From contig JBDRMS010000006.1 of NCBI GenBank assembly GCA_043811915.1, forward strand, positions 22,870-86,869: a stretch of 64,000 bases of DNA, read 5' to 3'. Source of the stretch: a bacterium (lineage in GTDB: Bacteria; Patescibacteriota; Andersenbacteria; UBA10190). Shown here one piece after another: positions 34,172 through 54,816 of the stretch. Position 1 is the stretch's first letter, and each line of letters begins with the position of its first letter. The notes under the pieces were generated by a model. That model made no database searches. It was not told where the DNA came from and worked only from the letters and a program-made list of their open reading frames with translations. The position numbers and the translations under genes are program-made.

Positions 34172-34516
34172 ATGGAAAAGTGTATTTTTTGCGAGATAGT
34201 TGAGGGGAGTACGCTGGCGGACGTGGTGTATGATGGCGGGGATACTTTATTTTTCCGGGATATTTCTCCGAAAGCTAAAGTGCATGTGGTAGGTATTCCT
34301 AAAAAGCACATTGTTTCGCTGGCTGATGTGGTAGCTGATGACCAGGCGATGATCGGTAAATTGTTGCACGATATTGTGCATGTGGCTGGAGAGATGGGTA
34401 TTGTGGAGAGCGGTTATAGGGTAATCACAAATGTGGGACAGGATGCGGGGCAGGAAATAAAACATTTGCACTTTCATATTTTAGGGGGCGAGGGAATAGG
34501 GCCGTTGAAATGTTAA
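34172..34516 (+). CDS. HIT family (histidine triad) nucleotide hydrolase
   Basis: 114 aa. CIFCEIV N-terminus and HLHFHILGG histidine triad. Confidence 0.8.
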   Translation: MEKCIFCEIVEGSTLADVVYDGGDTLFFRDISPKAKVHVVGIPKKHIVSLADVVADDQAMIGKLLHDIVHVAGEMGIVESGYRVITNVGQDAGQEIKHLHFHILGGEGIGPLKC

Positions 34517-34908
34517 AACTACTGACGCTGTTATTGATTTTTGGTTTGCTGGTGCCGCTGCCGGCGCGGCAGCAGCCGTTTGTTTATTGTTCGGGGAATG
34601 ATCCTCTTAAGTGCACGTTGGATGATTTGCTGGCGGTGCCGGTGAATATTTTCAACTTTTTGTTGGGCCTGGCGGCGGTTGTGTTGCTGGCCGTCATAAT
34701 ATGGGCGGGGATGAGAATGATACTGTATCATGCGTCGGAAATGCCGGAGCAGGAGCTGGCGAGTGCCAAAATGACGCTGACCAGAGGTATTATGGGGTTT
34801 CTTATTATTGCTTTTTCATATGTACTGGTGAATTTGCTGGTGTATACTTTGCTGGGGCTTGATACGAATTCAGGGGTGGCAAAAATATTGAAGGACTTTG
34901 GACTGTAG
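34510..34908 (+). CDS. small secreted 2-TM protein, possibly TrbC/VirB2-type (T4SS) pilin-like
   Basis: 132 aa. Signal peptide followed by two hydrophobic helices separated by a short polar loop. This resembles the conjugative pilin-like small proteins common in small-genome bacteria. Assignment is weak. Confidence 0.3.
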   Translation: MLKLLTLLLIFGLLVPLPARQQPFVYCSGNDPLKCTLDDLLAVPVNIFNFLLGLAAVVLLAVIIWAGMRMILYHASEMPEQELASAKMTLTRGIMGFLIIAFSYVLVNLLVYTLLGLDTNSGVAKILKDFGL

Positions 34909-35323: not shown

Positions 35324-36055
35324 ATGATAGCGCAGGGAGTTCCCCCACCAGATTTACCGCTGTCGTCTGATACGGCGGGGCAGGCGCCGAAGCCGCCGGT
35401 TGCCAAAGAGCCTGGCGGTGGTTTTGATGCTCCGGATCCGTTTATGGCGGGAGAAAAGGGAGGGAGTGAAAAGCCGGAGAGCATGGTTCAAAATACACCA
35501 CCACCGAGTATTGCTGAAGCGTCTCCGCTTGCCCCAACCACCTTTCGTCAACCGGAGAAGCCGCACCGGACTCGTCGCCGCATTGTGCTGGCAATTGGCG
35601 GCTTGGTGGTATTGATTTTGATTTCTGCCTTGGTGGTAGTGGCTGTCCGTTTCTTTTTAGCCACTGAAGATGCTCTTCTGCCGGAGGAGGAACCTGTTTT
35701 ACCGATGGAGGAAGAGAATACACCGCCGGCACCGACGAGTGATTCTGAAAATGCCGTGCTGGACGATGATGGTGACGGCTTGACGGCGGCAGAGGAAAGT
35801 TTTTATGGGACGGATCCGGACGTAGCTGATACGGACGGTGATGGGTTCAACGATGGCGAGGAAGTGCGAGCTGGTTTTGACCCATTAGGGCCCGGGAAGC
35901 TTGATTCCGATAACGATGGTTTTCCTGATCCTGATGAAAGAGAGTTTGGCTCTGATCCGTTTAACCCTGATACCGATGGGGATGGTTACAGTGATGGTGA
36001 TGAAATTCAAAATGGGTTTAATCCATTAATACCATCACCGGGCGACAAACTTTAA
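35324..36055 (+). CDS. secreted/membrane-anchored protein with Pro-rich linker and thrombospondin type-3-like Ca-binding Asp repeats
   Basis: 243 aa. TM helix ([22 protein letters not shown]) followed by four DxDxDGxxDxxE units ([48 protein letters not shown]). Confidence 0.5.
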
Positions 36056-36453
36056 TGCCGGTGACAATACAATGTCGGGAGTTTTCTTTAACCGGAGAAG
36101 AGGCGGAGAAGCTTTGGTTAAAAGTAGTGGTGCTATGTGGATGTCCGGATGAGATAGTGACAGTCAGGTGTGTTGGTGAGCGAGAGATAAAGCGATTAAA
36201 CAAGCGGTATCGGGGGAAAGACAAAGTAACGAATGTTTTAACTTTTTCGTATCAAAATGAGCCCCGCAAAGCTTCGCCGCGGGGCGAGCACGACGTGGCT
36301 ATATGTTTGTCTGTAGTTGCGGAGAAAGATGTGGCTTGGCTGCTGGTACATGCTTTTTTGCATGTGGCGGGCATGGATCACGAAAAATCGGCAGAGGAAG
36401 CAAAGAAGATGGAGCAGGCGGAAGCGGCGGTTCTGAAAGACCGCGGTTTTTAG
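36055..36453 (+). CDS. ybeY: rRNA maturation endoribonuclease YbeY
   Basis: 132 aa. Zinc-binding H..LH..G.DHE motif (HAFLHVAGMDHE). Confidence 0.8.
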   Translation: MPVTIQCREFSLTGEEAEKLWLKVVVLCGCPDEIVTVRCVGEREIKRLNKRYRGKDKVTNVLTFSYQNEPRKASPRGEHDVAICLSVVAEKDVAWLLVHAFLHVAGMDHEKSAEEAKKMEQAEAAVLKDRGF

Positions 36454-36478
36454 AGATTTATGTTAAACTTAGGGCAAT

Positions 36479-36868
36479 ATGGAAGAGAGGCGATTGTGGC
36501 GAAAACGAGACACGTTTAGTGATGCTTGTCGGCATGCATGGCGCGGGGTGGTGCTGGGTTGGCAGGCGGAACGTAACACCAAAGCCCAATTTGGGGTCGC
36601 TTTGACGGCGGTGTTGGCGGCGGTACTACTTGGGTTGCCAGCCAGTCAGGTAGCAGTGGTGATTTTAGTTTCCGCGGTGGTTATAATTTCTGAATTTTTC
36701 AACACAGCTATAGAGGAATTAAGTGATGTGGTGAGTCCTGAATATGATGAGGCGGTCGGAGAAGTAAAAGACATTGCGGCAGGAGCAGTATTACTGGTGA
36801 GTTTGGCAGCGATTATTGTTGGTTTTTTGTTGTTGGGTCCGCCAATGGTCGCGCTAGTAGTCAGCTAG
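36479..36868 (+). CDS. dgkA: diacylglycerol kinase / undecaprenol kinase (DgkA family)
   Basis: 129 aa, 3 TM helices. Conserved EFFNTAIEEL...EYDEAVGEVKDIAAGAVLL core aligns with E. coli DgkA. Lies in the typical ybeY-dgkA arrangement. Confidence 0.7.
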   Translation: MEERRLWRKRDTFSDACRHAWRGVVLGWQAERNTKAQFGVALTAVLAAVLLGLPASQVAVVILVSAVVIISEFFNTAIEELSDVVSPEYDEAVGEVKDIAAGAVLLVSLAAIIVGFLLLGPPMVALVVS

Positions 36869-36885
36869 GATTATAATGTGATAGT

Positions 36886-38124
36886 ATGGCGCAGCCTGTA
36901 TATCTAACTGGCGTTGATGTAGGATCTTCCGCGGTGCGAGTGGCGGTAGCCCAAATAGAAAAAGAGGGGCAGACACCGGTTGTCTTGGGTGTGGGGGTAG
37001 TTCCTATGGAGGGTATGCAAAAGGGAGTGGTGACGGATGTGGAGGATGCGGTGAAGTCGCTGGGGGCGGCTCTTGATATAGCAGAGCGGGTGGCGGGAGT
37101 GTCGGTAGAGCGAGGTTACGTTAGTATCAATGGTTCACACATCTCTTCGCAGAACTCACGGGGTGTCATCGCTGTCAGCCGGGCGGATGGAGAGATTACG
37201 GCTGACGACGTAGCTCGGGTTATTAACGCGGCGCAGGCAGTGTCGCTACCGAACAATCGTGAAGTGCTGCATGTGTTGCCGCAAAATTATATTGTAGATG
37301 GTCACGAGAATATTCATGATCCAGTTGGCATGACTGGTGTCAGGCTGGAGGTAGAAACGCATATTATCGAAGGCTCGACGCCTTTTGTAAAAAATATCAC
37401 CAAGGTGGTTAATCAGGCAGGGGTTCACATTGAGGACTTTGTGTTTTCGCCCCTGGCGGCGGCGACGGCTGTGCTTGATAAGAGACAGAAGGAGCTGGGT
37501 GTGGTTTTGGTTGATCTGGGGGCAGGGACCAGTAGTATGGTTGTTTATGAAGAAAATGTGCTGTTACACACAGCTGTACTGCCGTTGGGCTTTTCGCATA
37601 TTACTAATGATATTGCTATTGGTCTGCGTACTTCCATAGAAGTGGCGGAGGAAATAAAGCAGCAGTATGGCACGGCCTTGATAGATAACGTTAAGAATTC
37701 AGAGACAATTATGGTGGAGGGAGACGAAGAACAAGAACCTGTCTCGCGCAAGGAAGTAGCGAACATTATCAGTGCTCGGCTGGATGAGATATTTTCTTTT
37801 GTCGATCAAGAATTAAAACAAGTCGGCCGGTCCGGATTATTACCAGCCGGTATTATATTAACAGGGGGCGGAGCGCATTTGCCGGGAGTGGTTGAAATGG
37901 CTAAAAAGAAATTGCGCTTACCAGCTCGTGTTGGAAGACTGCAGGCGTTTGAGGGAGTAACAGAGCAAACTACTGACCCATCTTATGCTGTTGTGTTGGG
38001 TTTAATAATGTGGGCGCTTGAACAAGAGGCCGGGGTGGCGGGGCGTCGGGTATCTTTGTCCATGCCGGATGTAAGAGCAATAGCGGGTAAGCTGAAGGGC
38101 TGGTTTAAGACTTTTTTACCGTAA
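36886..38124 (+). CDS. ftsA: cell division protein FtsA
   Basis: 412 aa actin-like ATPase. N-terminus VYLTGVDVGSSAVRVAV with phosphate-1/2 and adenosine motifs. Lies upstream of ftsZ. Confidence 0.85.
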   Translation: MAQPVYLTGVDVGSSAVRVAVAQIEKEGQTPVVLGVGVVPMEGMQKGVVTDVEDAVKSLGAALDIAERVAGVSVERGYVSINGSHISSQNSRGVIAVSRADGEITADDVARVINAAQAVSLPNNREVLHVLPQNYIVDGHENIHDPVGMTGVRLEVETHIIEGSTPFVKNITKVVNQAGVHIEDFVFSPLAAATAVLDKRQKELGVVLVDLGAGTSSMVVYEENVLLHTAVLPLGFSHITNDIAIGLRTSIEVAEEIKQQYGTALIDNVKNSETIMVEGDEEQEPVSRKEVANIISARLDEIFSFVDQELKQVGRSGLLPAGIILTGGGAHLPGVVEMAKKKLRLPARVGRLQAFEGVTEQTTDPSYAVVLGLIMWALEQEAGVAGRRVSLSMPDVRAIAGKLKGWFKTFLP

Positions 38125-38140
38125 AAATACTAGTTTTGTT

Positions 38141-38177
38141 GCACACAAAGTGTGTTCATAATGAACACACTTTGTGC
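38141..38177. promoter_or_regulatory. perfect 37-bp palindrome abutting a TTGACA -35-like hexamer upstream of ftsZ
   Basis: The palindrome GCACACAAAGTGTGTTCAT-A-ATGAACACACTTTGTGC is followed immediately by TTGACA (38178-38183) and a T-run. It could be an ftsA terminator, an ftsZ operator, or both. Confidence 0.4.
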
Positions 38178-38214
38178 TTGACAGTTTTTTTCACTGGTTT
38201 AATCTTTAATAGAA

Positions 38215-39426
38215 ATGCCATTAAAGAAGCCAACTATCGAAAACGTTGCCAACATCAAAGTAATTGGTGTGGGAGGTTCCGGAAATGCGGCTTTGAATCG
38301 AATGGTGGAGGCAAAGATTAAAGGGGTGGAGTTTATAGCTGTTAATACTGATGCTCAAGCACTGCATTATTCTGGTGCGCAAACGAAGTTGCATATTGGG
38401 CAAAACCTGACGCGAGGTCTGGGAGCGGGAATGAATCCGGCTATCGGCCAGCAAGCGGTGGAGGAGAGCAGGGAAGAAATCCACGATATGATAAAGGGGT
38501 CAGATATGGTGTTCGTTACCTGTGGTTTTGGCGGCGGAACGGGCACAGGTGGAGCACCGCCGGTGTGTGAGATTGCCAAGGAAACCGGGGCATTGACAGT
38601 GGCGGTAGTCACAAAGCCTTTTTCTTTTGAAGGGCAGCAGCGCATGACGGTAGCTGAAGAAGGACTGGCGGAGTTAAATGATCGGGTTGATGCGGCAGTG
38701 ATTATTCCCAATGATCGCCTGCTGCAGATTATCGATAAGAAAACAAGTTTGTTGGACGCGTTCAAGGTGGTGGATGATGTTTTACGCCAGGGTGTACAGG
38801 GTATCTCTGACCTGATTACGCAGCACGGCATGGTTAATGTGGACTTTGCTGATATTAGGGCAATTGTTGAAAATGCGGGATCTGCGTTGATGGGCATTGG
38901 ACGGGCTGCCGGGGAGAATCGAGCGGTGGAAGCAGCGCGGGCGGCTGTGGAAAGTCCCATGTTGGATGTAACGGTGGACGGGGCCAAGGGAGTTATTTTT
39001 AATATCACGGCGGGGAATGACTTGCGCATGTATGAAGTAGAAGAGGTGGCTCGTGTTATTACTGAAAATGTTGATCCTAACGCCAAGGTTATATTTGGAG
39101 CGGTTATTGATCCGAATCAGGTGGAAGAGGGGGAACTGAAAATAACGGTGGTGGCCACCGGGTTTGATAAGCCGGAGGTGATGCGGGGCGGACAGCAGCG
39201 GTACAGCGGGGCGGTGCAGTTTGGTTCGCCCTTTTCAGGATCGGCGGAAGCGCCGGAAGAACCAATGCATAAGGTGGAGAGACGTATGGTACAGCCCGGA
39301 AGCGAACGGACGACGACGACAGAGCCGGCTGCCGAAGAGGAAGACCTGGATGTGCCGACTTTCATCCGGCGGAAGATGCGGGAGCAGCGTGAAGCGCGGA
39401 TAAAGAAAAAAGGGACTGGTAATTAG
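38215..39426 (+). CDS. ftsZ: cell division GTPase FtsZ
   Basis: Tubulin signature [12 protein letters not shown], an [14 protein letters not shown]-terminus and a C-terminal conserved peptide ([11 protein letters not shown]). Confidence 0.9.
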
Positions 39427-40866: not shown

Positions 40867-41777
40867 AAGAGCAGAGGGCAGAGATTAAAGATAAAAGTTA
40901 CGGGCTGGAAGCTGGGGTCTTGATTTTGATTATTATTTTGCTGCTGCTGGCAGTGGTGCCGGGGGTGGAGGATAAAGTGGTTTTTCTGGATGTGAGGCAA
41001 GGAGACTCTATTCTTTTGCAAAGTAAAACTAATCAAGTATTGATTGACGGTGGACCGGGGATGACGGTATTGCGTCGGCTGGGGGAAGAAATGCCGTGGT
41101 TCGACAGAAGAATTGAGGTGGTGGTACTAACTCATCCCCAACGAGATCACATGGAAGGGTTGTTGCATGCGCTGGACAGATATGAAGTGGGAATGGTGCT
41201 GCTACCAAAAATTGCTCATACCTCGCAAATGCAGGAGGCGTGGCTGAAGAGAATTACCAGTAAGGGAATTGCTTATCGTTTTGCCTGGGCAGGCGAAAAG
41301 ATTGTTGCGGGAGATATGATGATGACAATATTGGGGCCGTTTGACACTGAAGCGGCCAGGGCAGCAGCGCGAGCCAATTTGAATAATGTGGCAGTGGTGG
41401 CGCGAGTGGACTATGGCGGGATGTCTTTCCTGCTAACGGGGGACATTGAGAAGCGGATGGAGAGGATGTTGGTGTTGGAGTATGCGCGCGCCTCCTCACC
41501 AAGGGTTTTCCCGGCACGCGCTGCGAATGTCCTCGACGTTGATGTTTTGAAGGCCGGGCATCACGGCAGTAAGACTTCTACTAATGAGATATTGATTGAC
41601 AAGGCGAAGCCGGCGGCGGCGGTAATATCGGTGGGGGCTGATAATAAGTTTGGCCATCCTCATCCGGATGTACTGGCGCGTCTGGGCGATATACCGGTTT
41701 GGCGGACGGATGAAGCGGGATCGATTGGTTTTAAGTTGATGGATGATGGGCGGTGGATAATTGATGTTGACGGGTGA
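40857..41777 (+). CDS. ComEC C-terminal metallo-beta-lactamase-fold domain encoded as a separate overlapping ORF
   Basis: 306 aa. VLLQSKTNQVLIDGGPG...VVVLTHPQRDHMEGL HxHxDH-type MBL motif. Overlaps the upstream ComEC ORF by 10 nt in a different frame. Confidence 0.7.
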   Translation: MAMKEQRAEIKDKSYGLEAGVLILIIILLLLAVVPGVEDKVVFLDVRQGDSILLQSKTNQVLIDGGPGMTVLRRLGEEMPWFDRRIEVVVLTHPQRDHMEGLLHALDRYEVGMVLLPKIAHTSQMQEAWLKRITSKGIAYRFAWAGEKIVAGDMMMTILGPFDTEAARAAARANLNNVAVVARVDYGGMSFLLTGDIEKRMERMLVLEYARASSPRVFPARAANVLDVDVLKAGHHGSKTSTNEILIDKAKPAAAVISVGADNKFGHPHPDVLARLGDIPVWRTDEAGSIGFKLMDDGRWIIDVDG

Positions 41778-41798
41778 GGAGAATTTGTTAATGTTAGT

Positions 41799-41925
41799 AA
41801 CCGGTAGATGTTGTTTTTAAAGTTTGATCAAAAGGGATAAGTGAAGTGGGTGTAACTCCCACGCTGTGCCGCAACGGTAACCCCGCCTTTAGGCGGGGGA
41901 GTCCGATCCTTATCCGGTGTGTTAA
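41799..41925 (+). ncRNA. candidate cobalamin (B12) riboswitch
   Basis: Matches the remembered cobalamin-riboswitch core: GGGATAAGTGAAGTGGGTGTAACTCCCACGCTGTGCCGCAACGGTAA (GGTG.AA.TCC...GCTG.CCGCAAC.GTAA). A GC hairpin CCCCGCC-ttta-GGCGGGG and an AGTCCG B12-box-like segment follow. ACCGGT at both ends can close a P1 helix. The element sits directly upstream of the DUF4430 gene. Confidence 0.55.
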
Positions 41926-42004
41926 TTATTATTTAGCTTCCGAGCAGGGGCGCAAAGAAAGAATATTTGTCTCCTTGCTCTGGAAAATCAAGAAAGGAGA
42001 TTTT

Positions 42005-42472
42005 TTGTTAAAAGAGAAAAAAATTTATCGGGTGCGGGTTGAGATAGTAACGCTGTTGATATTGGTGCCGCTGGTGCTGGTGCTGGGGGCGGTGTTGAGT
42101 AGTTGGCCGCAAGACGCTGAAGAAAGTAAGCCGGCTGTTGCAGGCGAGGCACGACAAGTAGTGACGCTGAATATTCAGGGTCCTGGGGAAGTTATGGTGT
42201 ATGAGGTGGCTGTTGAGGGTGAAGCAACTGTTCGGGAGGTGTTAGAGGGGGCAGTTGTGCGAAGCGGCCTACTGCTTGACGTAAAGGACTACGGAGAGGA
42301 GTTGGGAATTTTTGTGGAAGCGATTAACGGGGTAGCAGGAGATGCCGGTCGCGGCACTTACTGGCATTTGTATATCAACGACGTATTGTCGCCGGTGGGG
42401 GCATCAACGGCCAAAGTGATGCCGGGCGACAGGATAACCTGGAAATATGAAAAACAGCATGAAGAAAATTAG
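42005..42472 (+). CDS. membrane-anchored DUF4430 (transcobalamin-like beta-domain) protein
   Basis: Start chosen at TTG 42005, preceded by AAAGGAG (41993-41999). The six-frame ORF start at 41846 would run through the riboswitch and hairpin. Has a signal anchor, then VTLNIQGPGEVMVYEVAVEGEATVREVL...GIFVEAINGVAGDAGRGTYWHLYINDVLSPVGASTAKVMPGDRITWKYE, which fits the DUF4430 pattern (G.FV..ING......W.Y.VN........Y.L..GD.I.W.Y). Confidence 0.55.
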   Translation: MLKEKKIYRVRVEIVTLLILVPLVLVLGAVLSSWPQDAEESKPAVAGEARQVVTLNIQGPGEVMVYEVAVEGEATVREVLEGAVVRSGLLLDVKDYGEELGIFVEAINGVAGDAGRGTYWHLYINDVLSPVGASTAKVMPGDRITWKYEKQHEEN

Positions 42473-44321
42473 TTTACTGGTAGTTTGTGTAGTGGGAATA
42501 GCCTGGGGCGCGTTGACGTTACAGGCGGCCGGGGAAGCAACTGTTGATTTAAGAATAGAGGGGAGCGAGAGCACAGTGTTTGCAAGGCCGGTTACAGTGT
42601 CGGATTGCAGTATTGCAGATGTAGGAGGAGTTGAGCACGAAATGTCAGGGGTGGCAGCGTGCGCTCTGGCAAAGGCGGCGGAGCAGAGCAGTTTCGAGAT
42701 GGAATTCAAGGATTTTGGCTTCGGTTTGTTTCTGGACAGAATTGGTTCGGATAGTACACCGGATGACTTTTCACAGAGCTGGTCTTTTTGGACCAATGAC
42801 AGCCCGGCCAGCGTGGGAGTTGACACCTACGAGGTGGAAGAAGGGGATAACTTATTACTGGCTTTTTCCGCCTGGCCGGCAGTGCCGCTGCGAGTGACGG
42901 GACCGGATGCGGCCGAGGCCGGCGAGACCATTACTTTTCTGGTAGAGAAGCGTGTAGGGGAATATGACGATAGCTTTATCTGGCAGGGCGGGTGGCAGGC
43001 GGCAGAAAATGCGATTTTGGATGTGGGAAGTAATGAATACCAGGTACCCGCTGACGGCGTGGTTAGAGTGACACTGGATAGCCCAGGGACAATAGCAGTG
43101 CAGGCGCGGGGAGAGGGACTGGTGCGCAGCAGCAGGCATGTAGTAGAAGTGGCGGCAGTGGTGGCGAGTCCGAGCGCGGAACCGACTGTGTCGCCAAGTC
43201 CGAACCCTAGTCCTTCATCCAGCAATAGCTCATCACCAAGCCCAAGCGTGGTGCCGGTTAGTGTTAATATGCGGCAAGACAGCGCGGGGCGGGCGCTTGT
43301 CTATCTGCGCGGGCAGCAAAGCAGTGATGGCACCATTGGCGGCTCAATGACGTCGGCCTGGAGCGCGATGGCTTTTGGGGCTGATTATCAGAGGGCACAA
43401 AATATTATGAAAGGCGGCGCTTCTTTGCTGGATGGATTAGAACAGGCTGTCTTGAGCAGTGCCACTGATGTGGAGCGGCAAATAATGGCGGTGCGGGCGG
43501 CGGGCATTAACCCAAGGTCATTTGCTGGCAGTGATTTGGTTATGGAATTAAAAAGTTATTATCGACAAGGTCAATTTGGTGAGGAGAGCCTGATTAATGA
43601 TGATGTGTTTGGTATATTGGCACTGTTGGCTGCCGAAGAGCCGATAGAATCGCCGGAAATAAGGGGGGCAGTAAAGACTGTGCTGTCTGCCCAGAAGTTT
43701 GACGGATCGTGGGATAACATTGATATGACGGCGGCGGCGGTGCAGGCGTTGAATGTTTATGCGAAACGGGGGGGCAGTATAGCAGTCGGTGGTGCAGTAA
43801 TCAGGGCGCGTGATTATTTACGTAATAGTCAGGACAAGTATGGTGGCTGGGGAGAAAATTCGGCCACGACGGCCTGGACTATTCAGGCGGTGGTGGCGCT
43901 GGGGGAGAAGGTGGATAGTTGGAAAAATAATGATGGCATGACGCCATGGCAGGCCTTGCTTCGTTATCGGAATAATAACGGTGGTTTTGGCTGGAGAGAA
44001 AAGAATGATGTGTCGGCATTTATGACGGCATACGCGGTGCCGGCGTTGCTTGGCCGGGCATGGCCGATTACTTTATTGGAATTGGAGACATCCTTGGCCA
44101 CATCTCCATTGCCGGCGGTGGCTGGTGCTGTGACGGCGATAGCTACCGTGGCGCCGGTAAGTTCTCTAGTGCCAGAGGTGGTATCGGAAGAGGTGGCTAA
44201 TGTTAATGTTGGTGATGATTTTGTTGCGCCCAGGGCGGTGGACCGTAACTTTGCGATTACTTTATTTGGTTTAGCTAATTTGGGTATTGGGGTGGCGGTG
44301 GCTAGAATGATTTTGATATGA
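42447..44321 (+). CDS. secreted DUF4430 + alpha/alpha-toroid (prenyltransferase/terpene-cyclase-like repeat) protein with C-terminal membrane anchor; transcobalamin-like architecture
   Basis: 624 aa. Signal peptide, N-terminal DUF4430-like beta domain (TVDLRIEGSESTVFARPVTV...SWSFWTNDSPASVGVDTYEVEEGDNLLLAFS) and a Ser/Pro linker. Repeated aromatic/Gly-Trp motifs of alpha/alpha-toroid repeats follow (SDGTIGGSMTSAWSAMAF, KYGGWGENSATTAWTIQAV, NNGGFGWREKNDVSAFMTAYAVPAL), then a C-terminal hydrophobic anchor. Confidence 0.55.
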   Translation: MKNSMKKISLLVVCVVGIAWGALTLQAAGEATVDLRIEGSESTVFARPVTVSDCSIADVGGVEHEMSGVAACALAKAAEQSSFEMEFKDFGFGLFLDRIGSDSTPDDFSQSWSFWTNDSPASVGVDTYEVEEGDNLLLAFSAWPAVPLRVTGPDAAEAGETITFLVEKRVGEYDDSFIWQGGWQAAENAILDVGSNEYQVPADGVVRVTLDSPGTIAVQARGEGLVRSSRHVVEVAAVVASPSAEPTVSPSPNPSPSSSNSSSPSPSVVPVSVNMRQDSAGRALVYLRGQQSSDGTIGGSMTSAWSAMAFGADYQRAQNIMKGGASLLDGLEQAVLSSATDVERQIMAVRAAGINPRSFAGSDLVMELKSYYRQGQFGEESLINDDVFGILALLAAEEPIESPEIRGAVKTVLSAQKFDGSWDNIDMTAAAVQALNVYAKRGGSIAVGGAVIRARDYLRNSQDKYGGWGENSATTAWTIQAVVALGEKVDSWKNNDGMTPWQALLRYRNNNGGFGWREKNDVSAFMTAYAVPALLGRAWPITLLELETSLATSPLPAVAGAVTAIATVAPVSSLVPEVVSEEVANVNVGDDFVAPRAVDRNFAITLFGLANLGIGVAVARMILI

Positions 44322-44878
44322 AGAAGGATTACTTGCTCTGGTTTTTCCTGGCGGCATTGATAGCGGGAGCGGCAATGGTGCGGGTGGGTAGTCATTTTCC
44401 CAACGCCACGCCGGTGGCGGCTGTTGCCTTATTGGCTGGAGCTGGTTTGAAGACGCGCTGGGCGGCGGCGGTGCCGCTGATAGCGATGGCTGTATCTGAC
44501 GTGTTTATTGGTTTTTCTCCATGGCCGATTACGGTGGCGGTTTACGGGTCGTTTGCCTTGATAGCATTGTTGGGCCGCTGGCTTGAGAACAATAGAGCGG
44601 CGGGGCGGGTAGTCGCGGCGGCGCTAGCTTCGTCTATATTATTTTATCTGATTACTAATGGGGCGGTGTGGTGGTTCAGCGGTCTTTATGCGCACACGGT
44701 GGATGGGCTTATCCTTTGTTATTACCTGGCCATACCATTTTTCCGCAATACGATGCTGGGAGACCTGGCTTATACGGGCGGCTTGTTCCTGGTGGTGGAA
44801 TATGTGCCGACGTTAGCGAACCTTTTCCACAATTTTCACAACAAAATTAAAATTCACTATGGTACACTGGTCGGATGA
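44318..44878 (+). CDS. small polytopic membrane protein, candidate vitamin-transporter substrate-binding (ECF-S / BtuM-like) component
   Basis: 186 aa, about 5-6 TM helices. Size and topology are typical of energy-coupling-factor S components. The functional call rests on gene context only. Confidence 0.35.
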   Translation: MKKDYLLWFFLAALIAGAAMVRVGSHFPNATPVAAVALLAGAGLKTRWAAAVPLIAMAVSDVFIGFSPWPITVAVYGSFALIALLGRWLENNRAAGRVVAAALASSILFYLITNGAVWWFSGLYAHTVDGLILCYYLAIPFFRNTMLGDLAYTGGLFLVVEYVPTLANLFHNFHNKIKIHYGTLVG

Positions 44879-47193
44879 ATTATTTTAAAACACTGCAGAA
44901 AGTAAACATCAGGTTTTCGCTTAGTGAGGGAGACGTGGCGAATATTCCTTCAATTCGTAAGCGGGATGGCCGAGTGGTGTCGTTTTCTCTGGACAAAATA
45001 TCGCAGGCAGTGTTGAAGGCGTTGAAAGTGACAAAAGAGGGGGATGAGTCGGATGCTGACTTTATTGCCAAGAAGGTGGCACGAGATGTATTGAAATTGA
45101 GGCGAGCCAGCCACAGTGAGCGGTTTGTGCCGGATGTGGAAATGATTCAGGATCTGGTAGAGGAAGAGTTGATGTTGCAGGATTTTGTCAAAACGGCCAA
45201 GGCTTACATTTTATACAGGGAGAAACATGCGGAGCTGCGGGAGATTAAGGGAGTGGTGCCGGCTCGAGTGAAGGATCTGGTGGCCAGGAGTAGAAAATAT
45301 TTCCGAAACCCGTTGGCCGAGTTTATTTACTTTCGCACTTACGCGCGCTGGATTGATGAAGAAGGACGGCGCGAGACCTGGATTGAAACGGTGGATCGCT
45401 ACCTGGACTTTATGAAGGAGAATATAGGTGATCGTTTGAGTGAAGAGGAATACAGCGAAGTGCGCCAGGCTATTTTGAATCATGAGGCGATGCCTTCCAT
45501 GCGGTTGATGCAGTTTGCGGGTAAGGCGGCGCGAAATACCAACGTATGCACCTATAATTGTTCTTACATTGCCCCTTCCAATTGGCAGGATTTTGCTGAG
45601 GTAATGTATGTGTCGATGTGCGGGACAGGAGTCGGTTTCTCAGTAGAGAGTCAAAACATACAGGCCCTGCCTCAGATTAAGAAACAGACGGGAGAGCAGC
45701 TGCCGAAACAGGTGGTGGATGACAGCAAGGAAGGCTGGGCTGATGCGCTGGCGCTGGGCTTAAACACGTGGGCTGACGGCAAAGACATTAAGTTTGATTT
45801 ATCAGGACTAAGGCCAGCCGGAGCCAGATTGAAAACGATGGGCGGCAAAAGTTCCGGTCCGGAGCCGCTGCGCCAGCTGCTGGAGTTCACGCGCAGCAAA
45901 ATGTTGAATAAACAGGGCAAGCGGCTGTCGAACATCGATGCCCACGACATCCTGTGTAAGATTGGTGATTGTGTGGTGTCTGGCGGAGTGAGACGCAGTG
46001 CTTTGATTTCTCTGTCTGATCTGGATGATACCGATATGCGTGATGCCAAGAAGGGACAGTTTTATGTGCAGGAGCCGCAGCGAAGTCTAGCTAATAATTC
46101 GGCGGTGTATCATGAGAAGCCGCTAACCACCGACTTTATTGATGAGTGGGTGGCGCTGATGAAGAGCGGCAGCGGTGAGCGGGGTATATTTAACCGGGGA
46201 AATTTATCGCAGACGCTGCCCAGGCGTCGGTTGGAACGGCTGGTCAAGGGTGAGGAGCCGCAGTGGGGCACAAACCCGTGCGGAGAAATTATCCTGAAGT
46301 CGAAGCAGTTTTGTAACTTAACGGAAGTAGTGGCGCGGCCGAAGGATACATTGGAAAACTTGAAGCACAAGATAAAAATAGCGTCGATTCTAGGTACCTA
46401 CCAGGCGACACTGACTAACTTTCCTTATTTGTCCAAAGAGTGGCAGGAGAACTGTGAGACGGAACGGTTACTGGGTGTTTCTATCACGGGGCAGTGGGAC
46501 TGTGAGACGGTGAGGGATAAAAAAGTATTGCAGCAGTTGCGGGAAGAGGCGGTGGCGACAAACAAAGAATACGCGGAGAGGTTTGGTATTCCTCAGGCAA
46601 CTTGCGTGACCTGTGTCAAGCCTTCCGGCACGGTATCGCAGGTGGTGGACTGTGCTTCGGGTATGCACCCGCGGCACGCCAGGTATTACATTCGCCGGGT
46701 CCGTATTTCGGCTACGGACGCACTGTTTATGATGTTGAAAGATCAAGGCGTGCCTTATTATCCGGAAGTTGGTCAGTCGGTGGAAGATGCCAGCACATAC
46801 GTGTTTGAGTTTCCGGTTAAGGCACCGGAAGGAGCGGTGGTGAAGGATGACCTCACGGCGTTGGAGCAGCTTTTGCACTGGAAAATGGTCAAGGAAAACT
46901 TTACGGAGCATAATCCGTCGGTAACTATTTCGGTGGGAGACGATGAGTGGATTCGAGTGGCTGACTGGTTGTATGATAATTGGGAGTTGGTGGGAGGACT
47001 GTCATTCCTGCCGCGGACAGACCACGTGTATCAGCTGGCGCCCTATGAGGAGATAGACAAGGAACGTTACGAAGAGTTGCTGAAAGGAATGCAAGACATA
47101 GACTATGCCAAAATCGTTACTTATGAAAAAATGGATGACACGGATGTGAAGATGGAACTGGCCTGTGCGGCGGGGGTGTGTGATATAGGGTGA
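44875..47193 (+). CDS. nrdJ: class II adenosylcobalamin-dependent ribonucleotide reductase with N-terminal ATP-cone
   Basis: 772 aa. ATP-cone (VVSFSLDKISQAVLKALKV), catalytic NPCGEI motif (WGTNPCGEIILKSKQFCNLTEV), a thiyl-radical Cys loop and C-terminal redox cysteines (ACAAGVCD). Confidence 0.85.
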   Translation: MNYFKTLQKVNIRFSLSEGDVANIPSIRKRDGRVVSFSLDKISQAVLKALKVTKEGDESDADFIAKKVARDVLKLRRASHSERFVPDVEMIQDLVEEELMLQDFVKTAKAYILYREKHAELREIKGVVPARVKDLVARSRKYFRNPLAEFIYFRTYARWIDEEGRRETWIETVDRYLDFMKENIGDRLSEEEYSEVRQAILNHEAMPSMRLMQFAGKAARNTNVCTYNCSYIAPSNWQDFAEVMYVSMCGTGVGFSVESQNIQALPQIKKQTGEQLPKQVVDDSKEGWADALALGLNTWADGKDIKFDLSGLRPAGARLKTMGGKSSGPEPLRQLLEFTRSKMLNKQGKRLSNIDAHDILCKIGDCVVSGGVRRSALISLSDLDDTDMRDAKKGQFYVQEPQRSLANNSAVYHEKPLTTDFIDEWVALMKSGSGERGIFNRGNLSQTLPRRRLERLVKGEEPQWGTNPCGEIILKSKQFCNLTEVVARPKDTLENLKHKIKIASILGTYQATLTNFPYLSKEWQENCETERLLGVSITGQWDCETVRDKKVLQQLREEAVATNKEYAERFGIPQATCVTCVKPSGTVSQVVDCASGMHPRHARYYIRRVRISATDALFMMLKDQGVPYYPEVGQSVEDASTYVFEFPVKAPEGAVVKDDLTALEQLLHWKMVKENFTEHNPSVTISVGDDEWIRVADWLYDNWELVGGLSFLPRTDHVYQLAPYEEIDKERYEELLKGMQDIDYAKIVTYEKMDDTDVKMELACAAGVCDIG

Positions 47194-47729
47194 TGTTGTA
47201 TACCAGGCAGGGGGACAGTGGTGCGACGTTCACCTGTCCGGCCGGGTCCAGAGTGTCGAAGCGGTCTAAATTAATTGAGGCGCTGGGGGCTCTGGATGAA
47301 ATAAATTCCTGGCTGGGGTTTTGTAAGGCGCGGTTGCCGGAAGAGGTCGGGTCGCTAAAAGATATCATTCATGGATTGCAGGAGGATTTGTTTATAGTGC
47401 AGGCGGAGCTGGCCGGGGCGGACAAGACAATAACGGCTGACAAAGTAAAAAGGATGGAGGTTCTGACGGATCAAATAGAACAACAGTTGCCGAAGATAAA
47501 TACTTTTTTTATCGCGGGGGAGACGGAGATATCTGCGTCTCTGGATGTGGCGCGGGCGCTGGCGCGCCGGGCCGAGCGGCGGGTGGTTGACGCAGTGGAG
47601 GCAGGGGAAGCGCAGGTGGGGAATGACACGAAAGCTTTTCTCAATCGCCTGTCCAGTGTGCTGTACGTCTTGGTTCGCTTCGCTAACCACAAACTAGGCG
47701 TCACCGAAAAATCACCAACCTACAGATAA
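47190..47729 (+). CDS. pduO: PduO-type ATP:cob(I)alamin adenosyltransferase
   Basis: 179 aa. N-terminal YTRQGDSGATF..GSRVSKRSKLIEALGALDEINSWLG matches the PduO/MMAB-type adenosyltransferase signature. Confidence 0.8.
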   Translation: MMLYTRQGDSGATFTCPAGSRVSKRSKLIEALGALDEINSWLGFCKARLPEEVGSLKDIIHGLQEDLFIVQAELAGADKTITADKVKRMEVLTDQIEQQLPKINTFFIAGETEISASLDVARALARRAERRVVDAVEAGEAQVGNDTKAFLNRLSSVLYVLVRFANHKLGVTEKSPTYR

Positions 47730-47862: not shown

Positions 47863-48699
47863 CTACTTTACCTCTAGCCTGTCACCGAGAATGGCGTCGA
47901 TCTCCGCGACAGTTTCGGCCGGTTCCTTCAGGTCTTGGAGGAGGGTATCCACGGAACTGATGTCGTTTTCTACAGCCGCCTCGTCCCATTTTTCCCCCTC
48001 TACCCTAAGTTCAGTTTCGACATTCACCAGCAGTGCTTCGATTTTTTCCTCAATACCAGCCAGCTGGTTGGACAGTGAAGTGCTGTTGCCTACGGCGTAG
48101 GAAGACTGGAGAGCTTTCAAAGCCACAGATTTGGCATCGATAGCCGCCAGCTGTGACTTGAACCGTTCTACTTTGTCCCGGGCAACTATCTGTTTTTGGC
48201 CAAGTCCTTCGGCTGTCTTTTGCATAACCAGCTGTGCCTCCTGCAATCCGGAAATACTCCCTGCCTTGTTTTTCCTGAGAGTAATCAATCGGTCAGACGT
48301 TCTTTGAATGTCATCCACGGAGTAGGTTCTACCCGCTATCTCGACCGGTGCAGACCCGGTAAGTTTTGTGCGCAGTCTACTTAGTGTCTGATCTATCTGC
48401 TGCACCGACTCCTCCAGAGACTTAATTTCTCTGTCCAGACGCTCCGCTTTGACTGTCGTCTGGATTCTTGTTCTGCGCATGGCTTCAATATCGCTCTTGA
48501 CTTTCTCCATCGCCAAGGTGATTGCCTTGCGCTCCACGGCTAACTTGCCCAGAACCCTATCAATTCGTTCCAGAAAACTGTCAGCCACCAACTCGCCGCG
48601 GGCACCGAGATCCTTGACGAAAAAGGCGGCGCCCAAGGCGAGCAACGCAACAATAACCAGCACGATTACCAAGACTCTCATTTTAGTGTCTCCTAACAA
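47863..48699 (-). CDS. membrane-anchored long coiled-coil protein (PspA/IM30-like?)
   Basis: 278 aa. N-terminal TM (VLVIVLVIVALLALGAAFFV) followed by about 230 aa of heptad-rich helix. Confidence 0.4.
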   Translation of the reverse strand: MLGDTKMRVLVIVLVIVALLALGAAFFVKDLGARGELVADSFLERIDRVLGKLAVERKAITLAMEKVKSDIEAMRRTRIQTTVKAERLDREIKSLEESVQQIDQTLSRLRTKLTGSAPVEIAGRTYSVDDIQRTSDRLITLRKNKAGSISGLQEAQLVMQKTAEGLGQKQIVARDKVERFKSQLAAIDAKSVALKALQSSYAVGNSTSLSNQLAGIEEKIEALLVNVETELRVEGEKWDEAAVENDISSVDTLLQDLKEPAETVAEIDAILGDRLEVK

Positions 48700-48807: not shown

Positions 48808-49731
48808 CTACCGTTTGAGTTCTTGCTCGAGGATGGCTTCGACGTTGAGGCCGCGCACCACGTTGTTACCTGATAACAACTGTGTCATCTGCTCGTCCAC
48901 TTCTGCCAGAATCGTTTCAATTTCCTGAACATCAGACTCTGACAGCTCCGTCCCTGCCAAGCCCTCGCGACGTTTCAAGCGACGTTCCGCCGACTCCAGT
49001 TGGCTGATCATGACAGTGTAACTGGCGTGCCTTTCTTCTGCCTCGCTAATTTGCTGTACCAGCTCGGTCAGCTCATTGGCCAGAGGCCGGGCGGAGGCCA
49101 GAGGCCGGGCGGAAGGAGAGCGTTGCAGGTCTGATGCCGACTTAACGCCCAAGAAACGTAGACCGCTAACGAGATTACTGCGGTCTTTCTTAAATCTCTC
49201 CAGACGGGACACTATGTTCTCGTCTTTCTGGCGGATTTCGGCCAGACGAGCATCAAGACGACCGGAAGATTGAGCGATATTGTTGTTTGGTGACTGTAGT
49301 GGAGTGTAGCGTCCCTCGAGCCGTTTAATGATAGTCTCATCTCTGTGATGACCTTCAGAACGGACTAGCAAGAGTTCACCGGAGGGCAATATTTCTTTAG
49401 AGAAACAATGTGAATAGAAACTATCATAGCTGCCCGGCTCGAGATGCACCCCCAAGTTCTTAACGCGGACCGAAATACCTGATCTCGTGGTTGAGTAGGT
49501 TGTTCTGTAAGTGTCGGAGCCAGCGGTGACAATCAGATGTCCCCCCGCGGTGAAATCTAAAACAGTTGATGAGTCGCCCGTTTTTTTCCATTGTCTGCAG
49601 AGAACGTCCCGTCGCCCTTCTATGTCGGGATCATCGTAGACACCGAGCAGATAACCACAGATGGCAAGGTAGGGTGCTGAAATTATAAATATCCTAAACC
49701 ATCTTTTCTCGAGCCAATCCAACCAACTCAT
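48808..49731 (-). CDS. hypothetical membrane-anchored protein with C-terminal coiled coil and internal tandem repeat
   Basis: 307 aa. N-terminal TM, a globular middle domain and a C-terminal coiled coil. Contains an in-frame 18-nt tandem duplication at ~49080-49116 encoding SARPLASARPLA. Confidence 0.4.
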   Translation of the reverse strand: MSWLDWLEKRWFRIFIISAPYLAICGYLLGVYDDPDIEGRRDVLCRQWKKTGDSSTVLDFTAGGHLIVTAGSDTYRTTYSTTRSGISVRVKNLGVHLEPGSYDSFYSHCFSKEILPSGELLLVRSEGHHRDETIIKRLEGRYTPLQSPNNNIAQSSGRLDARLAEIRQKDENIVSRLERFKKDRSNLVSGLRFLGVKSASDLQRSPSARPLASARPLANELTELVQQISEAEERHASYTVMISQLESAERRLKRREGLAGTELSESDVQEIETILAEVDEQMTQLLSGNNVVRGLNVEAILEQELKR

Positions 49732-50025: not shown

Positions 50026-50118
50026 GGGGACGTAGATCAATTGGGAGATCACTCCAGCTGGCCGCAAATGTGCACTATGCGGCAGGAGAGGTTAGGGGTT
50101 CGATTCCCTTCGTCTCCA
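50026..50118 (+). tRNA. aberrant tRNA-like element (~92 nt): canonical acceptor, D- and T-arms but an expanded bulged hairpin in place of a standard anticodon arm
   Basis: Acceptor GGGGACG/CGTCTCC (one G.U) with discriminator A. D-arm GATC-AATTGGGA-GATC. T-arm AGGGG-TTCGATT-CCCTT. The central 43 nt form CTCC..GCCGCA-aatgtgcacta-TGCGGC..GGAG rather than a 5-bp/7-nt anticodon arm. Confidence 0.4.
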
Positions 50119-52860: not shown

Positions 52861-54816
52861 GTGGAGAAAAGAGAGATGATAGCTCAAGGCCTGGAGAGAG
52901 TGGAAGTTATTCTGATTAAACTGACGCATTATGATGACGATGGCTTTCCTTACTGCTATGCCAGGGGAGTGCAGCCGCCTAATACATTGGCGGTGATGGA
53001 AAATCTTGTGAGCCAGGCAATGATGCACATTCTGCCGGCAGAGGTGTCCTGTCGCGTGAGAGTGTTTGATGAAAGTGTGTGGCGTGATCTGCGTGGTCAT
53101 AAGGCGCTGGAAAGATCGCCAAAGATGTGGCAGGAAAACACTATGGTAATTGTGTGCCTGGTGGGCGTGCAGTCATCGCAGTTTCCGCGAGCGTGCGACC
53201 TGATTCTTCGGTGGCAGAGAAGAGGAGCGGTTTGTGCTATTGGTGGAGCCCATGTCAGCGGGACTATTGCCACCATGCTGGACGGGATCAAAGACAAGGA
53301 TCGTCCGGATGTGCCGTGTCCTCACATTATGCCGCCGGAGCTGAATGCGTTAATGGCAAGTGGCGTGACGGTGTTCGAGGGCGAGGCGGAGCCGCACGCT
53401 GATGGCAGCAGCGTTTTGCAGCAAATGTTGGCTGATATGACACATGGCAGGCAGCTGGGCTTGTATCGTGGCGGGCGGCCGGATTTGACAAGTGCTGGTC
53501 TGCCGATGGTTTCACCCGATCGTTTCGGTGGATACGTGACGTGCACTGACACTGTTGGTCTCGGCCGTGGTTGTCCGCACAAATGTAGTTTTTGCTGCGT
53601 GATTAACTTTCAGGGAAGGAAGATTCGCAGTCGGGAACCCAATGTTGTTTTGGCTTATGTCAGGGAGGTATGTGAACGGGAAGGAAGAATATTGTTCTTT
53701 CTATACGATGACAACTTTGGGTGTAACCCGAGACGCGAGCAGTTGCTGGGCGGCTTAACTGCTTTGAGGAATCAGGGATTTAACATCCGGTTTATGGTTC
53801 AGATAGATTCCAGAGCATTGGGGAGAACGGGGTTTATTGAGAAGCTGGCTGCAGCAGGATGCGGACAAATATTTGTAGGTATCGAATCGCTGGATGATGG
53901 AAATCTTGCCGCGGCTGGCAAAGGGCATAACCGTAGAGCTGACTATGAAGCTATCTTTGTCAGGTGTCACAGATATGGCATCATCGTTCATGCTTCCATG
54001 ATGGTTGGTATGCAGCATGATACACCAGAGTCGGTGTCGGCAGAGATGGATCGATTGGCCGAGCTGGGCGCCGATGTGATGAGCCTGTATATATGTATGC
54101 CGGTGCCGGGCAGTGAGGACCATGTGCGTTTGTACTGTGAAGGCGGCCTTGGGGAAGTTGATTTAAATGCCATGGGTGGATATATCCCCACAGTTGATCA
54201 TCCCCTCATGTCGCGCGAGGAGCTGGTGCAGTTGTATCGGAAATCGTGGTTGCAGTTTCATCGTGTTCGCAACATGGTTGCCGCCTTAAAGCGATTCAGC
54301 AATCGGGAGGACCGCTGGCGCTTACTGCGTGTGTATATGTGGTATCGCTGGGCCATGAAGGTAGAGCATACTCACGCCATGAACGCCGGGCTTTATCGGG
54401 TGAGACCGTACTTTGAGCGGCGGCCGATTAGTCCTAAATTGTCGTTTGCTCTCTACTTGCTGCAGGAAGCGTGGCGCCATATGCGATACCTGGGCCTGTT
54501 TCTGGCGGAGTTCTATGTTTTCCAGCACGTGTATCTGGAGACAGAGTTCGCGCCGAAGCTGGCCGAACAGCGGGGTAAGGTGATCGACCGGGTGAGTGGA
54601 TTCCGCGACTGGTGGCGCCTGACGTTCGGCGACATCATGACCCGCGCCTGGCTCAACAACTTCTGGAAAAATTATGGGCGCAACCGCTGGAAGCTACTCG
54701 TGCCATGGCATTGGTGGAAACACCTGGTGGCTGTCCCGCACGCTTTTTCCGAGATAGTCTATACTATCCGGGTCGCGGCGTTGTTTCGGCGGCTCTTCAA
54801 AATGGCGAATTTGTGA
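52861..54816 (+). CDS. B12-binding domain radical SAM protein
   Basis: 651 aa. N-terminal Rossmann-like cobalamin-binding domain, a CxxxCxxC cluster (GCPHKCSFCCV) and an extended C-terminal helical region. Confidence 0.7.
   Translation: MEKREMIAQGLERVEVILIKLTHYDDDGFPYCYARGVQPPNTLAVMENLVSQAMMHILPAEVSCRVRVFDESVWRDLRGHKALERSPKMWQENTMVIVCLVGVQSSQFPRACDLILRWQRRGAVCAIGGAHVSGTIATMLDGIKDKDRPDVPCPHIMPPELNALMASGVTVFEGEAEPHADGSSVLQQMLADMTHGRQLGLYRGGRPDLTSAGLPMVSPDRFGGYVTCTDTVGLGRGCPHKCSFCCVINFQGRKIRSREPNVVLAYVREVCEREGRILFFLYDDNFGCNPRREQLLGGLTALRNQGFNIRFMVQIDSRALGRTGFIEKLAAAGCGQIFVGIESLDDGNLAAAGKGHNRRADYEAIFVRCHRYGIIVHASMMVGMQHDTPESVSAEMDRLAELGADVMSLYICMPVPGSEDHVRLYCEGGLGEVDLNAMGGYIPTVDHPLMSREELVQLYRKSWLQFHRVRNMVAALKRFSNREDRWRLLRVYMWYRWAMKVEHTHAMNAGLYRVRPYFERRPISPKLSFALYLLQEAWRHMRYLGLFLAEFYVFQHVYLETEFAPKLAEQRGKVIDRVSGFRDWWRLTFGDIMTRAWLNNFWKNYGRNRWKLLVPWHWWKHLVAVPHAFSEIVYTIRVAALFRRLFKMANL

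Follow-up and report, generated by a model that had tools for sequence, protein, structure and literature searches.

A probable B12-repressible salvage-and-use operon with a candidate DUF6580 corrinoid transporter in a Patescibacteria-type bacterium

Results

Layout of the operon

We examined a 64-kb window, the whole stretch of 64,000 nucleotides from contig JBDRMS010000006.1, for a group of genes linked to vitamin B12 (cobalamin). A preliminary description of this DNA had proposed six consecutive co-directional elements with a common B12 theme, and all six were found where it had placed them. They comprise a leader and five open reading frames (ORFs), g1 to g5, all called on the plus strand. 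The leader contains a divergent adenosylcobalamin (AdoCbl)-type cobalamin riboswitch aptamer (41815-41967, +), matched by RF01482 and by the custom models R1 and R2. A putative expression platform follows (41938-42007, +), consisting of a hairpin (41938-41985), the Shine-Dalgarno sequence AAGGAG (41994-41999) and a TTG codon at 42005. The first gene, g1 (42005-42472, +; PF14478), encodes a 155-aa, N-terminally membrane-anchored DUF4430 protein, which is transcobalamin-beta-like and CbrS-like. The second, g2 (42447-44321, +), encodes a 624-aa secreted protein with a DUF4430 domain, an immunoglobulin-like (Ig) domain, a toroid and a C-terminal anchor, as judged from Pfam and an AlphaFold2 (AF2) model. 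The third, g3 (44318-44878, +), encodes a 186-aa DUF6580 membrane protein with the fold of an energy-coupling factor (ECF) S-component (PF20221, AF2), which is a candidate corrinoid transporter. The last two genes encode a 772-aa class II ribonucleotide reductase (RNR) of the ribonucleoside triphosphate reductase (RTPR) type with an N-terminal ATP-cone (g4, 44875-47193, +; Pfam, PDB 1L1L), and a 179-aa PduO-type cob(I)alamin adenosyltransferase (g5, 47190-47729, +; PF01923, TIGR00636).

Consecutive genes overlap throughout, by 26 nt between g1 and g2 and by 4 nt at each of the g2/g3, g3/g4 and g4/g5 junctions. This is the layout of a single translationally coupled operon. A scan for promoters and terminators gave nothing beyond chance level. 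Directly 3' of the operon lie two ORFs on the minus strand, 47863-48699 (278 aa) and 48808-49731 (307 aa), without credible family match.

A divergent cobalamin-clan riboswitch in the leader

At the Rfam gathering thresholds the window contained no riboswitch, only tRNAs, and none was found in the related loci L001-L004 described below. A permissive scan of 41500-42300, however, revealed a match to RF01482 (AdoCbl riboswitch) at 41815-41962 with 44.6 bits and E 8e-7, spanning model positions 1-149 of 149. The leaders of orthologous operons also match RF01482 below threshold (L008, 45.8 bits; L001, 40.8; L003, 33.8; L007, 32.2), and the core sequence is almost invariant in close relatives. Two covariance models, R1 based on five leaders and R2 of a second generation, scored 111 and 96 bits, respectively, at 41827-41967, and R1 retrieved 44 matches among the fetched loci. 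In these 44 aligned relatives, 89.7% of the cells in the helices were paired, compared with 36-54% when the partners were slid. Double (compensatory) changes occurred in 18 of the 23 pairs, and the covariation score was 0.45 against at most 0.10 for the slid controls, values to be read with the fact that the alignment had itself been fitted to the model. Because of the RF01482 match, the matches in orthologous leaders, and the pairing and covariation among relatives, we accept the leader element, on these comparative grounds, as a real, divergent riboswitch of the cobalamin clan (Rfam CL00101). Thus the candidate riboswitch of the preliminary description holds as a conserved, covarying element, but RF00174, the family named there for its check, is not the one matched, the best family being RF01482 below its cut-off. 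As this variant scores under the Rfam threshold, automated annotation probably under-counts B12 regulation in genomes of the Candidate Phyla Radiation (CPR).

The 3' end of the aptamer lies about 40 nt before the start of g1 on the same strand. The hairpin, 5' of the ribosome-binding site, has a folding energy of −25.4 kcal/mol (z −2.6), and the TTG start of g1 is five bases 3' of the AAGGAG sequence. An alternative g1 start, GTG at 41846, was rejected, as the ORF would then traverse the riboswitch and the TTG codon has a Shine-Dalgarno sequence. Scanning with R2 also showed that several loci carry two or three riboswitch copies, some in tandem, before different genes of the B12 set; examples are L016 (6132-6239, 6274-6395 and 11013-11132 on the minus strand) and L024 (7841-7961 and 8482-8601), as well as L012, L039 and L043.

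Genes with predicted roles in the activation and use of B12

The proposed class II RNR and PduO adenosyltransferase were both borne out by family searches. The g4 product scored 73 bits for the ATP-cone and 44 bits for RNR_Alpha in Pfam, and matched the L. leichmannii RTPR (PDB 1L1L) with E 2.9e-51. Its TIGR02505 score of 309 bits is under the equivalog cut-off of 340, and that for RNR-II_ins_dom is borderline (25.4 bits against 27). It shares 27% identity with a Lactobacillales NrdJ over the full length, including the C-terminal Cys pair. The g5 product matched PF01923 (Cob_adeno_trans) with 150.3 bits and TIGR00636 with 141.5 bits, both above the cut-offs (108.45 for the latter).

Two extracytoplasmic DUF4430 proteins

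In transcobalamins the C-terminal domain is a DUF4430 domain (PMC4350170; PMC1796856). The reading of g1 as a membrane-anchored DUF4430 protein agrees with its PF14478 score of 57.8 bits (cut-off 23.8) and its single N-terminal transmembrane helix. It is 31% identical over 45 aa to a Lactobacillales protein in the CbrS position; a phmmer search of g1 against PDB sequences gave no useful match. In the literature we found no report of measured B12 binding by a bacterial DUF4430 protein and none on the function of bacterial DUF4430.

For g2, the description as a secreted DUF4430 and toroid protein with a C-terminal anchor was upheld by the domains of the AF2 model (pLDDT 87, pTM 0.52), with a borderline match to DUF4430. 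The model predicts a signal peptide (residues 2-24), the DUF4430 beta domain (residues 31-142, 42537-42872), an Ig-like sandwich domain (residues 146-236, 42882-43154), a disordered P/S linker, an alpha/alpha toroid (residues 273-540, 43263-44066), a second disordered linker, and a C-terminal transmembrane anchor (residues 597-623, 44235-44315). In Pfam g2 gave a weak SQHop_cyclase_C match and no match to PF01122 (Cobalamin_bind), for which one orthologue, P0137, has a weak match. Foldseek against the PDB matched the toroid to squalene-hopene cyclase (1.5e-8), to drimenyl-diphosphate synthase and to the TED domains of complement and alpha2-macroglobulin; transcobalamin (2bb5_A) was also matched, with E 3.1e-6 and TM(target) 0.47. 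The g2 family profile retrieved terpene cyclases and no transcobalamin from the PDB sequences, so that the likeness is one of fold only. The modelled toroid is therefore of the right superfamily, not specifically of the transcobalamin type.

The g2 product is identical to the database entry ABIH36_02120 (‘hypothetical protein’). It has 45 near-full-length orthologues of 38-71% identity, the named ones coming from Patescibacteria-type metagenome-assembled genomes, and many of them bear a precomputed PF14478 match. Among these orthologues C54 and C72 are invariant, invariant Cys residues are confined to the beta domain, and N384-D385-D386 in the toroid are conserved. We rejected the possibility that g2 is an alpha2-macroglobulin-like thioester protein, since a CxEQ motif is absent and the toroid lacks any conserved Cys. 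In the C-terminal anchor N611, G613, G615 and R620 are conserved across 43 orthologues, and this segment may be a lineage-specific sorting or anchoring signal instead of a plain transmembrane helix. The gene context of another toroid protein, P0171, which bears the JGI name ‘ECF S-component’, was uninformative.

The DUF6580 membrane protein

The small membrane protein noted beside the capture genes proved to be a DUF6580 protein with six helices. PF20221 (148.8 bits) was the sole Pfam family matched by g3, no NCBIfam model matched it, and the NCBI name for the family is ‘DUF6580 family putative transport protein’. The AF2 model (pLDDT 92) shows the six-helix fold of an ECF S-component, and its best structural match is BtuM. 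Searching the PDB sequences (E ≤ 10) with a DUF6580 profile retrieved a single chain, CbrT of ECF-CbrT (6FNP_A, E 5.7e-5), and no BtuM sequence. An hhalign comparison of DUF6580 with a CbrT homologue gave 80% probability over 112 columns; a CbrT fragment matches PF12822, not DUF6580. Among 56 DUF6580 proteins R22, H26, N29, P32, D61, N114 and Y124 are conserved, and Cys is absent from the invariant or nearly invariant columns. We found no paper on DUF6580 and none on B12 uptake in CPR bacteria. Instead of belonging to an unrelated, well-characterised membrane family, g3 thus falls in an uncharacterised, S-component-like one, and this strengthens the transport reading.

Recurrence of DUF6580 with B12 genes

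Searching with one degenerate peptide pattern, we found DUF6580 in at least 571 GTDB species genomes and took the best 80 loci for counts, in which the locus ORFs within the flank were searched with the window proteins. These loci (designated by L numbers) are mostly labelled with many Patescibacteria lineages, and also with Ignavibacteria, Bacteroidota, Chlorobiaceae, Omnitrophota and Nanoarchaeia. The flank holds a DUF4430 gene in 57 of the 80 loci, and in 45 it lies directly 5' of DUF6580 on the same strand. RNR-like genes (24/80), toroid proteins (17/80) and PduO genes (14/80) were also present. A cobalamin-clan riboswitch, counted from R2 and RF00174 matches combined, was found in 59 loci; in 57 of these the riboswitch stands 5' of DUF6580 and shares its strand, the distance between them having a median of 820 nt. 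DUF4430 was the first gene to follow the riboswitch in 34 cases.

The gene order of the window recurs in relatives. It is identical in L009, and the capture and transport triad of DUF4430, DUF4430 plus toroid, and DUF6580 is kept in L001-L004 and L008. L007 has a rearranged order, FtsA-FtsZ-NrdR-RNR-PduO-DUF4430-DUF6580, and 1.5 kb beyond this a toroid gene headed by a riboswitch. Positions 1-3754 of L007 share with 35324-39426 of the window the order TSP3-repeat protein, YbeY, diacylglycerol kinase, FtsA and FtsZ; after FtsZ the L007 series continues directly with NrdR, whereas the window has ComEC and a metallo-beta-lactamase-fold gene in between.

The toroid protein is an accessory and not a core part of the system, because it is present in just 17 of the 80 DUF6580 loci. 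Its absence from most loci also bears on the idea that g2 does not bind B12 at all, its toroid being an envelope module of the terpene-cyclase, prenyltransferase or alpha2-macroglobulin-like kind, with only g1 and g3 handling B12. The best fold matches of the toroid, the conserved N384-D385-D386 and source names such as ‘terpene cyclase/mutase family protein’ and ‘peptidase domain protein’ agree with this idea. We nevertheless consider it improbable, because of the riboswitch and the coupling to nrdJ (g4) and pduO (g5). The toroid is fused to DUF4430 inside the riboswitch-controlled operon, riboswitches stand directly 5' of toroid genes in several loci (e.g. L007, L032 and L086), and transcobalamin is among the significant Foldseek matches. 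The extracytoplasmic location of g2, the missing thioester motif and the confinement of invariant Cys to the beta domain likewise argue against it.

Outside the Patescibacteria, DUF6580 occurs in B12 contexts of a different kind. Canonical RF00174 riboswitches (70-99 bits) head the operon in 7 of the 9 loci with non-Patescibacteria labels. Operons of Ignavibacteria, Bacteroidota, Chlorobiaceae and Omnitrophota run from RF00174 through the gene for a TonB-dependent receptor and, sometimes, one for a BtuF-like Peripla_BP_2 or a DUF5074 protein, to DUF6580. In L005 the RF00174 match (75.5 bits) is immediately 5' of DUF6580, and in L074 MetH is directly 3' of it. Going by these RF00174, TonB receptor, BtuF-like and MetH contexts, DUF6580 takes the place of the inner-membrane B12 transporter in operons of phyla that are not related. 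In diderm loci the BtuF-like Peripla_BP_2 gene adjoins DUF6580 without neighbouring BtuC or BtuD (L060, 6983-7981; L005, 6779-7642 on the minus strand), an adjacency that hints at possible supply of an S-component-like carrier by a periplasmic binding protein. A Diphthami_syn_2 gene (PF01902) recurs in or right after the riboswitch-led diderm operons (L005, 8528-9262; L006, 3156-3890; L060, 6231-6923).

DUF6580 might instead be a conventional S-component that docks on a shared EcfA/A'/T module encoded elsewhere, as in the group II ECF-CbrT, with the same B12 function. The fold of g3 and its remote homology to CbrT, which requires an ECF module, fit this arrangement, and the view of the genome extends over no more than 64 kb. 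We regard it as rather unlikely, however. No ABC (ATP-binding cassette) ATPase is encoded among the window ORFs, and among 88 loci searched such a gene lies no more than 3 kb from DUF6580 in L003/L004 and L022 only. Moreover, the best structural match, BtuM, functions without a module, and DUF6580 is common in diderm phyla beside BtuB-like receptor genes. Because neither the window nor the neighbourhood of DUF6580 in relatives contains a gene for an ECF ATPase or T-component, g3 is probably either solitary or borrowing a module.

The surrounding window

Among named organisms, Parcubacteria, Andersenbacteria and other Patescibacteria provide the closest relatives of g2 and g3, and a Pfam survey of 54 window ORFs showed housekeeping genes typical of Patescibacteria genomes. 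No cob or cbi gene was found among these 54 ORFs, in agreement with the earlier remark that cobalamin biosynthesis genes are not visible here. That remark was accompanied by the claim of a B12-radical-SAM gene at 52861-54816 (+, 651 aa), which is confirmed as a radical-SAM gene. Radical_SAM was its only match at E ≤ 0.05, the first ~230 residues had no family match and no B12-binding domain (PF02310) was detected; the best NCBIfam models are class-B (B12-binding) families, with scores far under the cut-offs and mostly from the SAM core. Its contribution to the demand for B12 is conjectural.

Other features of the window lie apart from the operon. The GC skew is very strong and nearly all positive across 1-64000 (+0.14 to +0.34 per 2 kb), nearly all genes being on the plus strand; it approaches zero only at 48-50 kb, where the genes are on the minus strand. 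A 93-nt Rfam tRNA match at 50026-50118 (+, 47.3 bits), just 5' of ndk, was not called by ARAGORN and may be an unusual or interrupted tRNA. An 1104-aa surface protein with FG-GAP, PKD and CarboxypepD_reg domains is encoded at 11845-15159 (+), and a small type IV secretion system (T4SS)-pilin-like protein at 34510-34908 (+).

Discussion

Riboswitch, two DUF4430 proteins, membrane protein, class II RNR and PduO occur together in one operon, so that its B12-themed reading is well supported. We propose with good confidence that this operon serves the salvage and use of B12 in a B12-auxotrophic bacterium of the CPR/Patescibacteria type, is repressible by B12 and is the counterpart of the nrdJ-cbrS-cbrT-pduO cluster of Lactobacillales. 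The equation rests on the similar gene content and on cbrS being a DUF4430 gene. The latter is seen in CbrT-like loci, which carry DUF4430 at that position (L089/L090: RNR-II, DUF4430, DUF4430, ECF_trnsprt, Cob_adeno_trans; L091/L092: DUF4430, CbrT, PduO); cbrS thus encodes DUF4430 proteins. To our knowledge, CbrS has never been characterised, and the present analysis offers a candidate function for CbrS/DUF4430 proteins.

For corrinoid binding, hand-off, transport, energetics and the regulation of the operon we infer the following course. When AdoCbl is abundant, the divergent riboswitch leader would silence the operon. Under B12 scarcity g1, a tethered transcobalamin-beta-like DUF4430/SLBB protein, and g2, with its beta domain, Ig spacer and toroid, would be produced; the g1-type beta domain and the toroid in g2 would correspond to the two halves of transcobalamin in permuted order. 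To judge from fold, domain content, gene context and a prediction published in 2007 (PMC1796856), both proteins may bind corrinoid outside the cell and pass it to g3. The latter, with the six-helix fold of BtuM and CbrT and a strong comparative context, would move it across the membrane, probably alone like BtuM, or else using a module encoded elsewhere. In the cytoplasm g5 would adenosylate the cobalamin and g4 would use AdoCbl to make deoxynucleoside triphosphates (dNTPs), activities that are predicted from clear family assignments.

Several observations weigh against this proposal. The riboswitch score is under the RF01482 gathering cut-off of 50, and the DUF4430 match of g2 (23.7 bits) falls 0.1 bit below the Pfam cut-off. 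The toroid of g2 is nearer to squalene-hopene cyclase and complement TED domains than to transcobalamin, and is in any case confined to a minority of DUF6580 loci. The low pTM leaves the inter-domain geometry of the g2 model uncertain, so that a transcobalamin-like sandwich is conjectural. The view was limited to 64 kb, and the rest of the genome could hold genes for B12 synthesis or for an ECF module. Finally, experiments on the L. sakei operon lsa1836-1840, which encodes an ECF transporter along with transcobalamin alpha- and beta-like proteins, linked it to heme, and its reported effect is on the uptake of heme, not of B12 (bioRxiv 10.1101/864751).

The proposed role of that operon in heme uptake, together with the finding that ECF-CbrT carries cobinamide too (PMC5997447), raises the question whether the substrate of the capture and transport genes is heme, or a corrinoid precursor (e.g. 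cobinamide), and not finished B12. This appears very improbable in the present case because of the AdoCbl-type riboswitch leader and because the genes are translationally coupled to those of an adenosyltransferase and an AdoCbl-dependent RNR. Elsewhere, DUF6580 stands after RF00174 and BtuB-like genes and before MetH, and the window showed no genes for cobinamide salvage.

Beyond the operon, we suggest tentatively that DUF6580 is an unrecognised, widespread B12 transporter of the cytoplasmic membrane, S-component-like but without ECF ATPase, and fed by membrane-tethered DUF4430 proteins in CPR bacteria or, in diderms, by BtuB alone or together with a BtuF-like protein. BtuCDF is predicted to be absent from about half of the bacteria auxotrophic for B12 (PMC6072759), and BtuM and ECF-CbrT account for only some of them. 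For the missing transporter, above all in the CPR, DUF6580 offers a concrete candidate, and it is tied to cobalamin riboswitches in dozens of phylogenetically distant species. The dependence of CPR bacteria on their neighbours for cofactors is central to CPR biology. If the suggestion is true, DUF6580 would be the main entry route of B12 into CPR/Patescibacteria, and its pairing of an extracellular binder with a solitary S-component would be new.

The preliminary description had regarded the capture and uptake route as undescribed. This view is not supported, as the route is preceded by the Lactobacillales cluster with its DUF4430-encoding cbrS (PMC5997447), by the prediction of PMC1796856 and by the L. 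sakei ECF operon. In the B12 auxotroph L. delbrueckii, CbrT is part of a cluster, nrdJ-cbrS-cbrT-pduO (Santos et al. 2018, PMC5997447). That cluster, like the window operon, combines an RTPR-type RNR, one or two DUF4430 proteins, a six-helix protein of S-component fold and PduO, in hosts that, as predicted for the window host, are B12 auxotrophs needing B12 for dNTP synthesis. The window operon differs in its gene order, in its CPR host and in g2, which is enlarged by the Ig domain, the toroid and the C-terminal anchor. In contrast to ECF-CbrT, its membrane protein belongs to DUF6580 and not PF12822, with only a remote kinship between them (E about 1e-5), and no ECF module was seen with the operon in the 64 kb. 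The proteobacterial B12 transporter BtuM is a solitary protein of S-component type that functions with no ECF module (PMC6072759; PDB 6FFV/8OVV). It has a cobalt-ligand Cys (PMC6072759), whereas DUF6580 is without a conserved Cys; the DUF6580 profile does not find BtuM at the sequence level, and the CPR members are paired with extracellular DUF4430 proteins.

Bacterial transcobalamin-like SLBB proteins were predicted to scavenge B12 by Burroughs, Balaji, Iyer and Aravind (2007, PMC1796856), who described a beta-grasp domain fused to an N- or C-terminal alpha/alpha toroid and Ig domains, with a further paralogue encoded by the same operon, in hosts without B12 synthesis. The secreted or anchored beta-grasp, toroid and Ig architecture and the second SLBB paralogue are shared with the window. 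However, their operons include CbiO/CbiQ (ECF module) and were seen as a Gram-positive innovation, whereas the window has DUF6580, no ABC gene and a CPR host. The mammalian transcobalamin, intrinsic factor and haptocorrin use the same building blocks as g2, an alpha/alpha toroid and a DUF4430 beta domain. In mammalian transcobalamin the alpha domain precedes the beta domain; g2, in contrast, has the order beta, Ig, toroid with a long linker between, is membrane-anchored, gives no PF01122 match and has a toroid nearer to terpene cyclases. It may thus be viewed as a bacterial, domain-permuted relative of transcobalamin. The L. sakei operon resembles that of the window in uniting an S-component with extracellular DUF4430 and toroid proteins, but it includes EcfA and EcfT and has no riboswitch, nrdJ or pduO context. 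The theme of B12 salvage is therefore known from lactobacilli, and the interest of the window lies in DUF6580, an uncharacterised, widespread family of candidate B12 transporters linked to riboswitches, and in the CPR riboswitch variant that scores below threshold.

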